Positions 31,459 through 35,448 of a DNA stretch of 64,000 nt are shown here, piece after piece. The stretch covers positions 832,001 to 896,000 of the forward strand of contig OY970340.1 in the NCBI GenBank assembly GCA_963717465.1. Reading direction: 5' to 3'. The first letter of the stretch is position 1. Every line of letters begins with the position of its first letter. The translations under genes and the position numbers were made by a program. The stretch comes from Candidatus Bathyarchaeota archaeon. Lineage in GTDB: Archaea; Thermoproteota; Bathyarchaeia; Bathyarchaeales; Bathycorpusculaceae. The notes below the pieces were generated by a model. The model did not search any database. It was not told the DNA's origin and worked only from the letters and a program-made list of their open reading frames with translations.

Positions 31459-32379
31459 ATGGCGCTTCAAAATAGAGATATAATATCAATTCAAGACTTT
31501 ACTAAACAAGAAATCACCCAAATTTTGCAGTTCAGCAAGTCGATGGAGCCAAAAGCAAAAACAGGCACAAACACCCTAAAAGGAAAAATTCTTGCCACGC
31601 TATTCTATGAACCTTCAACAAGGACCAGATTAAGCTTTGAAGCAGCTATGCAGAAACAAGGCGGAACAACCATAGGTTTCACGCAACCCCAAGAAGCAAG
31701 CATCAAAAAAGGAGAAAACCTTGCGGATACAATTCGCACAGTAGAGAATTATGCTGACGTAATCGCACTCCGTCATCCATTGGAAGGAGCAGCAAAATTA
31801 GCGGCTGAAATAAGCGAAAAGCCAATAATTAACGCTGGGACAGGTGCAGAAGAGCATCCAACACAAGCATTCACAGATTTGTACACTATCCAAAAAGAAA
31901 AAGGGACTATAGACAACTTGAAAATAGCCTTAATTGGCGATCTAAGATATGGTAGAACTGTTCACTCGCTTGCTTATGCGCTAATGAATTACAATGTTGA
32001 GTTGCACCTGATTTCTCCAGAGACTCTTCGTATGCAAAAAAGTGTTTTGAAAACGATAAAAACGAAGATAAATGTTGTAGAAGACGCAAATCTTGAAAAA
32101 ATAATCCAAGAAATAGACGTCTTGTATGTAACAAGAATTCAAAAGGAACGTTTCCCTGATCAAGCTGAATACGCGAAGCTAAAAGGCACCTACAAAATAG
32201 ATAAAAATACAATTTTGAACGCAAAGAAAGGCATGATTATTCTTCATCCTCTTCCAAGAATAGATGAAATAGCTCCAGAAGTTGATAAAACGCCGCATGC
32301 ACGGTATTTTCAGCAAGCATGGAACGGACTTGTAGTCAGAATGGCACTGCTAACGTTGGTTTTAAGCGAAACCAAATAG
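31459..32379 (+). CDS. pyrB: Aspartate carbamoyltransferase catalytic subunit
   Basis: FYEPSTRTRLSFE, HPTQ, HPLPR. Confidence 0.97.
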   Translation: MALQNRDIISIQDFTKQEITQILQFSKSMEPKAKTGTNTLKGKILATLFYEPSTRTRLSFEAAMQKQGGTTIGFTQPQEASIKKGENLADTIRTVENYADVIALRHPLEGAAKLAAEISEKPIINAGTGAEEHPTQAFTDLYTIQKEKGTIDNLKIALIGDLRYGRTVHSLAYALMNYNVELHLISPETLRMQKSVLKTIKTKINVVEDANLEKIIQEIDVLYVTRIQKERFPDQAEYAKLKGTYKIDKNTILNAKKGMIILHPLPRIDEIAPEVDKTPHARYFQQAWNGLVVRMALLTLVLSETK

Positions 32380-32382
32380 AAC

Positions 32383-34590
32383 TTAGGCTGAATCAAACCT
32401 GTCAAATTTTGCTATCGAGTTTATGGATCCACATGTGGGGCACTTGTGAAGATTTCCAAACCAGCTTTTCTTGCAGTTGTCACAGTAACTAATTACTCGA
32501 TTGTATGTGAAGAAATTAAGTGTTTGATTCTCTATTAATTGCTTTGTAAAACTCAAAAGCATTTCCGGGGTGTATTCAGCCTCATGCAAATCTATTATGC
32601 CGAGAAAACAGCTTTTGAAGCCTTTTTGCTTCTTTCCAATCTTTATATCTTCAGGGGCAAATCCAAAATTCTCACTGTTTGCCTGCAAATGTATAGTTGT
32701 TGAGTAGTAAGGCTTCTCTCTTGTTCCAGAAAACTTGATTTTAGCTATCCCGTACTTCTCGATGTCCAGTCGCGCAAGTCTTTCAGATGCTTCAGGACTG
32801 TAAATTATTGCAGGATACAGACGTCTTCCAAGTCGTCTTCCGAGTATCACCTTGAAAGCTTGAATTTCCTGTATCACTTCTTCGAAAAACTTGCTGTTTT
32901 CTTCAACTCTGCCTGCTTTTTCAGTGAAAGATTCTGCTGCTTCATTTAAACCTGCAAAATTTATTAATCGCAAGCAATTTTCAAGCCTAAAGTACGCGTC
33001 ACCCTTAGCCTTTTTTAGAAGAAATGGTAACGTATTATTGCCATATTTTTTTATAGCGTTATATTTAATATCTAAGGCACGAGCAGCTAATTCGCACCGA
33101 TCTCTTAAAATCTCAAAAAACTTGTTCTTTTCCATATTGCTTTCTTGAACAATCCGCGGAATGTTTATGGTAACATACCCAAGACACCCCGTACGGAGCG
33201 TATCTGTTTCCCAGTCATCAGTTAAGTCTGGTGAAAAACTAGCTCCTGTGGCAGAAAAAGAATTGTCTTCAACTTCTTTTTGAATCATACATGCAAAGTT
33301 AGGAATTCCGTTTCTTGTAGCCAGTAGATGTGCTTTCAAAAGCACTTTCTTTGCTTTCTCATCAGCTAAAACGTTTTTGTCTATTTTTAAGACTAGATTA
33401 GGGCTAAATAATGGTTTGATTGCGCTTTCTTCCATCATTACCTCAACGGTTAAATCAGCCAGTAACACGGTTTCTGAAGCAAAATCGCTATATTTCCCAT
33501 TAATTTTTCCTCCTGGGCCGATGGCTGGTTTTTCCCCTACCACTTTTGGAATTGAAAGCTCTAAGCCTAGCGTTACTTGGACGTGTTTGTTTAAGTTGAG
33601 CAGGAATAACCGCAGACTTTCCTTAATCCTTTGACGATCAAGACCTTTTGCGTAAGGTGCAAGAAACACAGTGAAGTAATTGCATGTTTGCATGCGATTT
33701 ACTTCTTTACTTGAATGCAAAAGTACATTAAAGATGGTGATTAATGCCGATTCGAAGTTGTCTGGTGGGCGCGTTGAAAATTCATGCGGGTCATCAAAAA
33801 TGATGCCGTTTTGGAAGAAAAACCGCATGTCGTGGATTACTTCGTTTGGTTTTAAAATCCACGTGCCTAAACCGTCTATGTGAATTGCGCCAGAGAGGTG
33901 TGCATCAGCTATGTCTCTTGGGAAAATGTTGAGAAGCGTGTATTCACCTATGACTGTTTGGCCTGCTTTTGCCAGAATGCTTGTTGAATCTTGTATTTTC
34001 TGTTTCGATATTATCAATAGAGTTACTTCGTGAATTGGCATGCCTACTCTGGTTAGTTTGTTGCGGTAATCTTCATAGCCCTTTTCGACTAGTATCCCAT
34101 TTACAACTTCTCTGATTAGTGAAGCGGTCAGGTACTTGGTTTTGGACTTTAGCAAGCGTTTCTCAGCTTCTTTAGCTGCTTTTTGGGCTAACTCAACGGG
34201 TACTCTTGCTTCAGCTATAAGCGAATTCGCAATTTTGTTTGCGTCAAATTCTTCAAGCGTTAAATGCGAGGTTCTTACAAGCATTCCTCGTGGTTTAACA
34301 GCGTTTTTCTCAATTCTATCAGAAACATCTAGAACCATTTTGCCAAGATCTGTCAAGAAATACTTCTTTGATTCAACATCAGCTTCAACCAAGTTAGCCT
34401 TTAAAAGGAACTTTAGGTGATAAGCAAATCTTCCAGCATCTCGGCTGGGATTCATCTTAAGCGCATTCATCAATTCCGTGTATGAGAGAGCGCTTTTATC
34501 GAATAATAAGTTGAGAATTTGAAGCCTGAGGGGTGAAGAAACGGCTTTTAGAACCTTCACGCCGCGCGTTCGATGAGGTGGATTTACCAT
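32383..34590 (-). CDS. ArsR-HTH + ATP-cone + NrdD-like fusion, apparently catalytically degenerate
   Basis: N-terminal wHTH; ATP cone (EEFDANKI...LTASLIRE); NrdD-like core (AHLSGAIHI, DTLRTG...TINIPRI); C-terminal CDNC/CPTC zinc ribbon; no RxxGY motif. Confidence 0.85.
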   Translation of the reverse strand: MVNPPHRTRGVKVLKAVSSPLRLQILNLLFDKSALSYTELMNALKMNPSRDAGRFAYHLKFLLKANLVEADVESKKYFLTDLGKMVLDVSDRIEKNAVKPRGMLVRTSHLTLEEFDANKIANSLIAEARVPVELAQKAAKEAEKRLLKSKTKYLTASLIREVVNGILVEKGYEDYRNKLTRVGMPIHEVTLLIISKQKIQDSTSILAKAGQTVIGEYTLLNIFPRDIADAHLSGAIHIDGLGTWILKPNEVIHDMRFFFQNGIIFDDPHEFSTRPPDNFESALITIFNVLLHSSKEVNRMQTCNYFTVFLAPYAKGLDRQRIKESLRLFLLNLNKHVQVTLGLELSIPKVVGEKPAIGPGGKINGKYSDFASETVLLADLTVEVMMEESAIKPLFSPNLVLKIDKNVLADEKAKKVLLKAHLLATRNGIPNFACMIQKEVEDNSFSATGASFSPDLTDDWETDTLRTGCLGYVTINIPRIVQESNMEKNKFFEILRDRCELAARALDIKYNAIKKYGNNTLPFLLKKAKGDAYFRLENCLRLINFAGLNEAAESFTEKAGRVEENSKFFEEVIQEIQAFKVILGRRLGRRLYPAIIYSPEASERLARLDIEKYGIAKIKFSGTREKPYYSTTIHLQANSENFGFAPEDIKIGKKQKGFKSCFLGIIDLHEAEYTPEMLLSFTKQLIENQTLNFFTYNRVISYCDNCKKSWFGNLHKCPTCGSINSIAKFDRFDSA

Positions 34591-34866
34591 TCCATGCTTC
34601 CCCCACTCTAAATTTAGTGCTTTACTTATTATTAATTGCAGAGTTTAAACTTAGCTAAGGCTTTATTTATGCAAGCGCTTAAAAGGGGCTGTTTTATGTC
34701 GCTATTTTAGGGTACTTTCCTATTGATATATTATATCTTACGAAAGCACATTCAATATTGATAATCATTATATCTATCTCTGCACTAAGATAAGTTTTGA
34801 GAATTCGTTACGTTTATTTATGGTTTGGTATATTAAACTATCAGATAAGTCCGGGATGTACAAAGC

Positions 34867-35448
34867 ATGTCGAAGAAACCGCAATCCAAAGATGAAGCAT
34901 TCGAAGCCTTAGACTTCATCGTAAACGTACTTAAAGAGCACGAAAAAGACCTAGACCGACTAATAAACGAATTAGGAACAGTAACAGAACGTTTGGGCGA
35001 AACCGGTGAAGTAAGCAAAAAAGTGGAGAAAGTAGAGGAAAAAATAAACGGCTTACAGAATGAAGTAACAAACCTGATTAGCTATTTATCTACTTCACCT
35101 AAAGAAACCCCTACTCCATCAACCATTAGGACTCCAAAACTCGGTTCAGCAAATGCAACTTCGAACACTTTTACCCCTGCTGTACCTTCAGTGCAAAGCG
35201 GTCCTCCTGTAATTCTACGGTGCAAACAATGGGAAGATTTCCAAAATTTGGCGTCACAATCGCAAACAATATCATTCATGTATAAAGAAGCCGAAAAAGC
35301 GTTCCAAGTTGATGCAATAAAGGGCAATCAAATAGCCTCTTACAGCGGCGAGTTACCAAAGTTAGTTTCGCTTTTAAGAATGTGGCTATCAAAGCAGTTA
35401 GATGTTCCAGAAACCAGGATTTTAGAAGGCATTTTGGCCATCGGTTAG
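34867..35448 (+). CDS. Conserved hypothetical coiled-coil protein
   Basis: EALDFIVNVLKEHEKDLDRLI heptads; globular C-terminal domain. Confidence 0.75.
   Translation: MSKKPQSKDEAFEALDFIVNVLKEHEKDLDRLINELGTVTERLGETGEVSKKVEKVEEKINGLQNEVTNLISYLSTSPKETPTPSTIRTPKLGSANATSNTFTPAVPSVQSGPPVILRCKQWEDFQNLASQSQTISFMYKEAEKAFQVDAIKGNQIASYSGELPKLVSLLRMWLSKQLDVPETRILEGILAIG

Follow-up and report, generated by a model that had tools for sequence, protein, structure and literature searches.

A winged helix-turn-helix domain on a catalytically dead class III ribonucleotide reductase subunit: a likely nucleotide-sensing regulator of ribonucleotide reductase genes in archaea

NrdR is the bacterial repressor of ribonucleotide reductase (RNR) genes and, in the accessible portion of PMC9110341, is described as rare in archaea. 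ATP-cones also occur in class III RNRs themselves, in which, according to the available text of PMC12662201 and PMC11226230, dATP drives cone dimerisation and repositioning. For most Thermoproteota, no described RNR regulator was found in the literature searched. Here, we analyse a gene located on the minus strand of a 64,000-nucleotide stretch (hereafter the window) of contig OY970340.1 from a Candidatus Bathyarchaeota archaeon. The gene encodes a protein of 735 amino acids (aa) that carries a winged helix-turn-helix (wHTH) and an ATP-cone on a catalytically dead class III RNR subunit, from which all catalytic and substrate-binding motifs have been lost, and it belongs to a single conserved family that spans Thermoproteota and Asgard archaea. 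The protein likely acts as a dimer that senses ATP/dATP and regulates the transcription of RNR genes, which would make it an archaeal counterpart of NrdR built like NrtR, a reading to which we assign a probability of roughly two in three. Its parts, in window coordinates, are as follows.

32383..34590, minus strand: whole open reading frame (ORF), 735 aa, with wHTH, ATP-cone, dead class III RNR barrel and Zn ribbon.
34330..34554, minus strand: ArsR-type wHTH, residues 13-87, Pfam HTH_5/DUF7347, dN/dS 0.044.
34066..34281, minus strand: ATP-cone of the VRTS type, residues 104-175, Pfam PF03477 above cut-off, putative ATP/dATP sensor.
34021..34065, minus strand: TRxGxP linker between cone and core, invariant, residues 176-190, on the two-fold axis of the modelled dimer.
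32491..33972, minus strand: dead 10-stranded RNR barrel, residues 207-700, matching 8p2s_B in structure, putative dimer scaffold.
33871..33882, minus strand: HIDG replacing the substrate-triphosphate motif HxHD (alignment).
33841..33843, minus strand: E250 in place of the beta-A Cys, C175 in E. coli (alignment).
33241..33246, minus strand: finger-loop Cys pair (thiyl radical, C384 in E. coli) replaced by G449-A450 (alignment).
32431..32484, minus strand: Zn ribbon CxxC-x10-CxxC of the former glycyl-radical domain (C703, C706, C717, C720).
32383..32400, minus strand: C-terminus RFDSA-stop, in which the Arg of RxxGY is retained and the chain ends at the glycyl site.

The domains listed in the original prediction, which was made from the DNA letters alone (ArsR-like wHTH, ATP-cone, NrdD-like barrel and Zn ribbon), agree with both the Pfam matches and the structure match. 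The Pfam NRDD domain covers residues 207-731, and the NCBIfam NrdD equivalog TIGR02487 scores 211 bits, below its cut-off of 326. The AlphaFold2 model of the protein (predicted local distance difference test, pLDDT, 87.9; predicted template modelling score, pTM, 0.80) finds class III RNRs as its best matches (Foldseek E 8.5e-27), and the VIA match to 8p2s_B (Z 32.8, root-mean-square deviation 2.6, 518 residues aligned) identifies the 10-stranded alpha/beta RNR barrel. The nearest solved structures to the wHTH are HlyU, CadC and ArsR (E 1e-5 to 2e-4), and its putative recognition helix, RDAGRFAYHL, is strongly conserved across the family.

The loss of catalytic residues was followed in an alignment of 80 family ORFs, hand-picked from the loci, with E. 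coli NrdD and eight archaeal NrdD3-type enzymes, and in a second sample formed by the best 150 matches of a profile search, 91 of which bear the wHTH (50%-identity representatives). Motifs were defined from 10.1101/2022.04.23.489257, PMC4493059 (HxHD) and PMC11226230, as given in the accessible parts of these sources. In the 735-aa protein, the beta-A Cys column holds E250, within KPNEVIHD, and the finger-loop CC columns hold G449/A450, within SATGASF, so that both replacements proposed by eye in the original prediction fall in the expected columns. HIDG stands at HxHD and KQK at the NxN flap. R731 aligns with the Arg of RITGY, and the chain ends four residues later (...KFDRFDSA); in the structure match, the final residue, 735, is superposed on the glycyl site of T4 NrdD, residue 580. 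The proposal that the C-terminus lacks RxxGY and that no frame restores it is thus borne out by alignment, frames and structure, and comparison with characterised NrdD proteins, the check set beforehand, finds neither the catalytic Cys nor the Gly retained. These losses extend to the whole family. The beta-A Cys is present in none of the 80 members and none of the 91 representatives; HxHD and NxN are likewise found in 0/91. A Gly occupies the glycyl column in 7/80 and 12/91, a single finger-loop Cys is found in 4/80, and a Cys near the finger tip in 7/91, while the glycyl Gly and a finger-loop Cys never occur together (0/80, 0/91), and no member examined has the full catalytic set. The Zn-ribbon Cys are each present in 75-77 of the 80 members.

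It is very improbable that the protein remains an enzyme to which another polypeptide supplies the glycyl radical, or that the gene is a pseudogene undergoing decay. Database entries often name it an anaerobic RNR, and one representative (P0155) retains RRLGYL. However, neither alternative frame yields RxxGY beyond the Zn ribbon of the 735-aa ORF, which rules out restoration of the motif by frameshift or readthrough. The search for a separate glycyl-radical subunit in the genome (88% complete) returned no Gly_radical match and no spare RxxGY ORF, the sole sizeable RxxGY ORF being a separate nrdD. Since both catalytic Cys, HxHD and NxN are all gone, a donated Gly loop would be insufficient. Methanosuratincola-type and Asgard members (L052-L055, L063, L065; P0133, P0137, P0141, P0147, P0151, P0155) have the glycyl-position Gly without any catalytic Cys. 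In deep members, therefore, loss of the chemistry came first and loss of the tail followed.

Decay is also opposed by selection. Across 15 non-overlapping independent pairs (dS 0.05-1.5), dN/dS equals 0.044 both in the wHTH and in the cone with its linker; the barrel halves give 0.152 and 0.128, and the Zn ribbon together with the tail gives 0.075. The uninterrupted ORF had been taken as an argument against decay, and this argument is strengthened by purifying selection in every domain; nor do orthologues show the HTH loss or relaxed selection that would have refuted the original prediction, the wHTH being retained under strong purifying selection. A full closed ORF is found in 71 of 79 named Bathyarchaeia loci, the other eight being broken, cut or unparsed.

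Profile matches occur in 223 of 301 genomes of the phylum, canonical NrdDs included, and 80 genomes were chosen by hand with weight given to families with matches. The wHTH-cone module is present in 68 of these 80 Thermoproteota genomes, as a single copy with one exception; the 12 genomes that lack it, spread over nine families, have a completeness of 93-99%. The protein body is shorter in some families. Named members come from Nitrosopumilus maritimus (ABX13524.1), Nitrosotenuis, Methanosuratincola and Culexarchaeum, and Asgard members from Baldrarchaeia, Atabeyarchaeum and Ranarchaeia. ESM Atlas contains clusters with the same domains in which Promethearchaeota is the most frequent taxon or, in a weaker lead (score 0.88), Nanobdellota. 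In trees, the family is separated from canonical NrdDs by a branch with 100/100 support (IQ-TREE, 25 rows) or 99 (FastTree, 64 rows), and canonical archaeal NrdDs are its nearest relatives. The family is independent of class III chemistry, being kept where NrdD and NrdG were not found: no NrdD match was obtained in 6/6 genomes of the Nitrosopumilus/Nitrosotenuis type (family f13), nor in 3/3 of f25 and 3/3 of f20, all of which have a family member, and no NrdG exceeded the cut-off in the 5/5 of these genomes that were tested. In the Nitrosopumilus order as a whole, 59 of 61 genomes match the family.

Two observations touch on the limits of the family. One genome (G030) has two members (C13:5426-7609 and C16:18685-19248), one of them Bathyarchaeia-like, in a taxonomic family that otherwise has a short divergent form; this points to either transfer or bin contamination. 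A second NrdD-like set lacks the wHTH (P0196, P0202, P0208, P0219, P0230, P0232, P0237, P0239, P0252, P0253, P0262). Most of its proteins apparently have two ATP-cones, they lack the finger-loop motif and RxxGY, and many stop short of the Zn ribbon; Euryarchaeota/BMS3Abin16 is the name given to one cluster. In the tree, they form several groups on the canonical side. They are possibly independent RNR pseudoenzymes or split enzymes.

Among the 80 ORFs, the cone and linker (residues 104-186) show the highest mean pairwise identity (61.5%), against 47% for the wHTH and 30% for the barrel. In the nucleotide-binding hairpin and the start of helix 1, V105 is found in 78 members, R106 in 80, S108 in 79, F115 in 79 and I120 in 80, a conservation equal to that of active NrdD3 cones, and linker residues R181, G183 and P185 are invariant (80/80). 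The barrel specificity site is eroded: the T4 E181 column is Glu in 6/80, the K103 column is Lys in 49/80 (Asp in the 735-aa protein), and loop 2 is largely deleted. As the specificity Glu and loop 2 are lost, the barrel site was rejected as the main sensor, and the sensor is most likely the ATP-cone.

A homodimer held by the cone helices, the TRxGxP linker and barrel helices is predicted. Two copies of residues 1-490 gave a score of 0.61 vs 0.00 for the best control. Of the solved pairs, 20 of 30 attain the mark, as does 1 of the 23 single chains, and resemblance to solved NrdD dimers can produce a pass. The runs show at least 80% contact agreement, with pLDDT of at least 76. The modelled interface comprises cone helices 145-173, linker 176-190, helix 201-221, residues 242-247 and barrel helices 284-296 and 328-336, and it holds many family-invariant residues; the wHTH lies outside the confident dimer interface.

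That interface can be read in another way, in which a DNA-binding protein responds to an effector other than ATP/dATP (redox or oxygen, Zn, a partner) and the cone is a dimer or protein-contact module. The invariant cone and linker residues R160, E161, R181, G183 and P185 do lie in the modelled interface, and deep-branching members keep the glycyl-loop Gly. In addition, the N. maritimus member, inferred to be Nmar_1628 because it adjoins the B12 RNR Nmar_1627 (PMC4303638, accessible part), appears in the available text of 10.1101/2021.04.01.436977 as an 'AsnC family' regulator, one that decreased when oxygen was being produced under anoxia. Nevertheless, such an effector seems improbable to us, since the nucleotide hairpin and helix 1 start are as conserved as in active NrdD3 cones and since the 735-aa protein and the Nitrosopumilus type are fully devoid of the glycyl loop.

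The genes beside the family point to its likely targets. The context sample holds 87 loci from 83 genomes, about one third with 1.5-kb flanks only. The family gene is followed directly by a same-strand RNR gene in 25 of the 83 genomes, namely 11 nrdD (some behind a glutaredoxin gene) and 14 nrdJ; beyond these, one genome has a degenerate NrdD and one a divergent nrdJ. In the Nitrosopumilus order, a cone-type RNR start is found downstream of the family gene in 20 of 30 loci, and among further Bathyarchaeia RNR loci, the family profile matches upstream in 7 of 37. Adjacency to both nrdD and nrdJ indicates a link that survives a change of enzyme class. In one genome (G004; L073:2677-4584), the NrdD that follows the family gene has itself lost the CC and Gly (PAGLR, RSIAFY), an intact NrdD being encoded elsewhere, a possible second inactivation.

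Adjacency would also fit regulation at the protein level, with the dead subunit pairing with active NrdD (or NrdJ) to tether or inhibit it and DNA binding being secondary. The barrel retains the helices that form the class III dimer surface, inside the modelled interface, and the family gene often adjoins nrdD. However, the family is kept in genomes without an NrdD match, class II NrdJ dimerises differently (10.1101/2022.04.23.489257, accessible part), selection is strongest on the wHTH, and the adjacent RNR gene is preceded by a TATA-bearing intergenic region of its own. We regard this explanation as having a slim chance, and DNA-level control of RNR genes as the better reading.

In the window's genome, RNR genes are found away from the 735-aa gene: an nrdR-nrdD-nrdG operon (C1:1297636-1300902) and an nrdJ (C1:2121730-2123700, start approximate). 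The check for a separate nrdD/nrdG thus found the operon, its nrdD being frameshifted in the assembly. The nrdD pieces carry YCVG, MCCR and RVVGY. This nrdD lies in three frames and nrdJ in two, and sufC-like and lactate-utilisation genes are also split; all these look like indel errors of a single-contig assembly, not pseudogenes. Since the genome also encodes NrdR and a separate nrdD/nrdG, the 735-aa protein is not its only RNR regulator. A further ATP-cone protein is encoded at C1:2008000-2008600 (minus strand), fused to a restriction-endonuclease-like domain (Mrr-type by eye).

NrdR is present in 7 of the 80 selected genomes, all belonging to the window's own family, f1. A bacterial-type nrdR-nrdD(-nrdG) unit with paired NrdR-box-like sites was observed in 43 of 46 f1 genomes and in none of 73 other Thermoproteota tested, which suggests one horizontal gain at the root of f1. 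These sites resemble the NrdR box, with box length and spacing taken from the available text of PMC13584703.

A candidate operator was found in these f1 promoters. A pattern fixed beforehand occurs in 28 of 30 new f1 nrdR-nrdD promoters vs 66 of 204 in the background. In 29 of these promoters, de novo motif discovery in the part that precedes the NrdR boxes returned TTTCnACA-N4-TGTnGAAA, with an information content (IC) of 15.1 vs 7.1-7.3 for random sets; by leave-one-out, 23/30 lie above the background 95th percentile, and the 20-bp site ends 3-5 nt before the TATA box in 23/30. As NrdR-box-like sites sit downstream of the TATA box in these promoters and the 20-bp site upstream, two operators would flank it. 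Outside f1, the highest scores (21.3 and 17.9) belong to nrdJ promoters of an NrdR-free family in which nrdJ immediately follows the family gene. Site and TATA together are found in 3/6 held-out f1 promoters and 5/13 adjacent promoters in NrdR-free families, against 4/204 in the background, and in 0/16 family-negative RNR promoters, 0/63 pyrB promoters and 0/74 promoters of the family gene itself. In the window's genome, the candidate site (C1:1297536-1297555, score 13.2) lies immediately next to the nrdR-nrdD-nrdG TATA box, with the NrdR boxes further downstream. Altogether, the 20-bp element is real in f1, where it is strong; it is weak in most other families rather than family-wide, and for the 735-aa protein it is a candidate operator. 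Its best genome-wide match (C1:2493913-2493932, score 20.0) stands beside a TATA-like sequence, before a 131-aa minus-strand ORF with no assigned function.

Two earlier motifs were set aside. An 18-bp AT-rich palindrome, derived from 13 hand-anchored promoters, scored 13/31 in held-out nrdD promoters vs 12/204 in the background and 2/16 in family-negative ones; several of its matches are the TATA box itself and none falls at the promoters of the window's genome, and it was replaced by the 20-bp matrix. A Nitrosopumilus-type motif, TGTCAA-N5-TTGA, is position-conserved within that family, with an IC of 12.0, near that of a rival Shine-Dalgarno-like motif (11.6).

These findings lead to a model in which the ATP-cone would read the ATP/dATP balance, and nucleotide bound there would re-orient both cones, as in solved class III enzymes. 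Because dATP moves the cones in those enzymes, it offers a way to move the attached wHTH heads, and the shift might align both heads with a palindrome at the transcription factor B recognition element (BRE) and TATA box of RNR promoters, or misalign them. High dATP would thereby lower transcription of RNR genes, repression by the dATP form being slightly more likely than activation by the ATP form because the site overlaps the BRE. We infer that the protein binds nucleotide and DNA, as well as which genes it targets and with which sign.

Several results weigh against RNR genes as the targets. Among the 79 closest named loci, the family gene lies beside an RNR gene in only two and has pyrB on the opposite strand in 68, and other families include many genomes in which its neighbours are unrelated. 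Control of nrdD is already exerted by NrdR in f1 (43/46 genomes). Despite the strongly conserved wHTH helix, site and TATA are found together in 1/31 non-adjacent nrdD, 0/45 non-adjacent nrdJ and 0/11 Nitrosopumilus-type promoters, and in 3/37 RNR promoters of a fresh set from other Bathyarchaeia families (three loci dropped as too short, some starts probably mis-called). The Nitrosopumilus-type motif does not transfer to other classes (4/31 vs 11/204, p 0.12). In the window's genome, the nrdR site ranks joint fourth of 19 intergenic site-and-TATA candidates, 64 positions score as high, and the nrdJ promoter has no good site (score 3.2). The 20-bp site could also belong to another factor, and its GAAA end may be just the BRE.

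An alternative is a nucleotide-sensing transcription factor with other main targets, either pyrB/pyrI or a wider nucleotide or replication regulon, the RNR link being synteny left from duplication. The relevant features of the window are given below.

31459..32379, plus strand: pyrB, convergent neighbour, 3 nt from the stop codon of the 735-aa ORF.
34643..34649, minus strand: TATA-like TTTAAAC, promoter of the 735-aa gene itself, without the candidate operator.

The convergence with pyrB reported in the original prediction is confirmed. Besides lying on the opposite strand in the 68 close loci, pyrB is present in 36 of the 87 loci phylum-wide and is convergent in 5/5 loci of a Baldrarchaeia-like protein. 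Moreover, an nrdD duplicate would begin beside nrdD anyway, and the operator is absent from most RNR promoters tested. However, there is no conserved element in the pyrB-pyrI intergenic region (2/25 above background, first matrix) or, as noted above, upstream of pyrB; the family gene also precedes nrdJ, a different enzyme, in two classes; and a 3-nt convergent junction is hard to break, other neighbours (atpF/atpA and an HTH gene) being likewise conserved alongside. In several genomes, the order is regulator > nrdD > < pyrB, pyrI >, and the window looks like this block after nrdD left. We therefore consider other main targets unlikely, though less so than any other alternative: pyrB is probably ancient synteny rather than a target, and RNR genes are the likely targets. 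On the other side of the 735-aa gene, its promoter carries a AAGTTTAAAC pattern that recurs in most of the relatives listed, and a divergent 193-aa ORF (34867-35448, plus strand) has an N-terminal coiled coil, matches no family above cut-off and was not seen as a conserved neighbour among relatives.

A fuller history can be proposed, to which we give even odds. A class III RNR subunit would have been duplicated before the Thermoproteota-Asgard split and stripped of its chemistry to become a dATP-feedback switch for RNR transcription. In aerobic ammonia oxidisers, this switch would later have exchanged nrdD for nrdJ, which encodes the B12 enzyme, and in the window's lineage it would work alongside an imported NrdR.

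No description of the family was found in the literature searched, a coverage that leaves out most subscription journals. The RNR phylogeny preprint contains no mention of ArsR or helix-turn-helix, the accessible text of the RNRdb paper (PMC2795772) none of Nitrosopumilus or Cenarchaeum, and that of PMC6593220 none of ArsR. The family offers a concrete, mostly single-copy candidate RNR regulator for Thermoproteota, and members in cultured organisms (Nitrosopumilus maritimus, Nitrosotenuis, Methanosuratincola) make the question testable. It also corrects an annotation error, as aerobic ammonia oxidisers have been credited with an anaerobic RNR because of this protein. If the proposed function is true, an RNR pseudoenzyme serves as a transcription factor, with the enzyme's own allosteric switch reused.

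The 735-aa protein is a member of neither NrdD nor NrdR. Compared with NrdD3, the archaeal class III RNR alpha subunit with a QCCR finger loop (PF13597, TIGR02487), and with the solved relatives 8p2s, 9d3x, 4u3e and 1h7a, the family shares the fold (VIA Z 31-33), the VRTS-type cone, the TRxGxP linker and the Zn ribbon. It differs in adding the N-terminal wHTH and in lacking the beta-A Cys, finger-loop Cys, HxHD, NxN and loop 2, as well as, in the 735-aa protein, the glycyl loop. The ArsR/SmtB/HlyU regulators (3jth, 1u2w) share the fold of this N-terminal domain, yet they are stand-alone dimers of about 100-120 aa, whereas the family wHTH is fused to cone and barrel; the NCBIfam metalloregulator model NF033788 scores 31.8 bits against the 735-aa protein, below its cut-off of 55.

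The likeness to NrdR (TIGR00244) lies in an ATP-cone joined to a DNA-binding module, a gene placed before RNR genes and a presumed dATP feedback on RNR transcription. NrdR has 140-220 aa, an N-terminal Zn ribbon and 16-bp boxes, whereas the protein analysed here has 735 aa, a wHTH and a whole dead alpha subunit; it shows no Zn_ribbon_NrdR or TIGR00244 match, and its N-terminus does not have the two CxxC of NrdR. The candidate site is a palindrome that differs from the NrdR box and lies on the other side of the TATA box, and both proteins coexist in f1. The closest parallel in design is NrtR, the Nudix-related regulator, which, in the accessible part of PMC2330246, likewise joins an enzyme-fold domain to an HTH, is annotated as an enzyme and is linked to genes of its parent pathway. 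NrtR differs in enzyme fold, domain order and ligand: its effector domain is the enzyme-like one, whereas the likely sensor of the family described here is the allosteric cone, the active site having been emptied.

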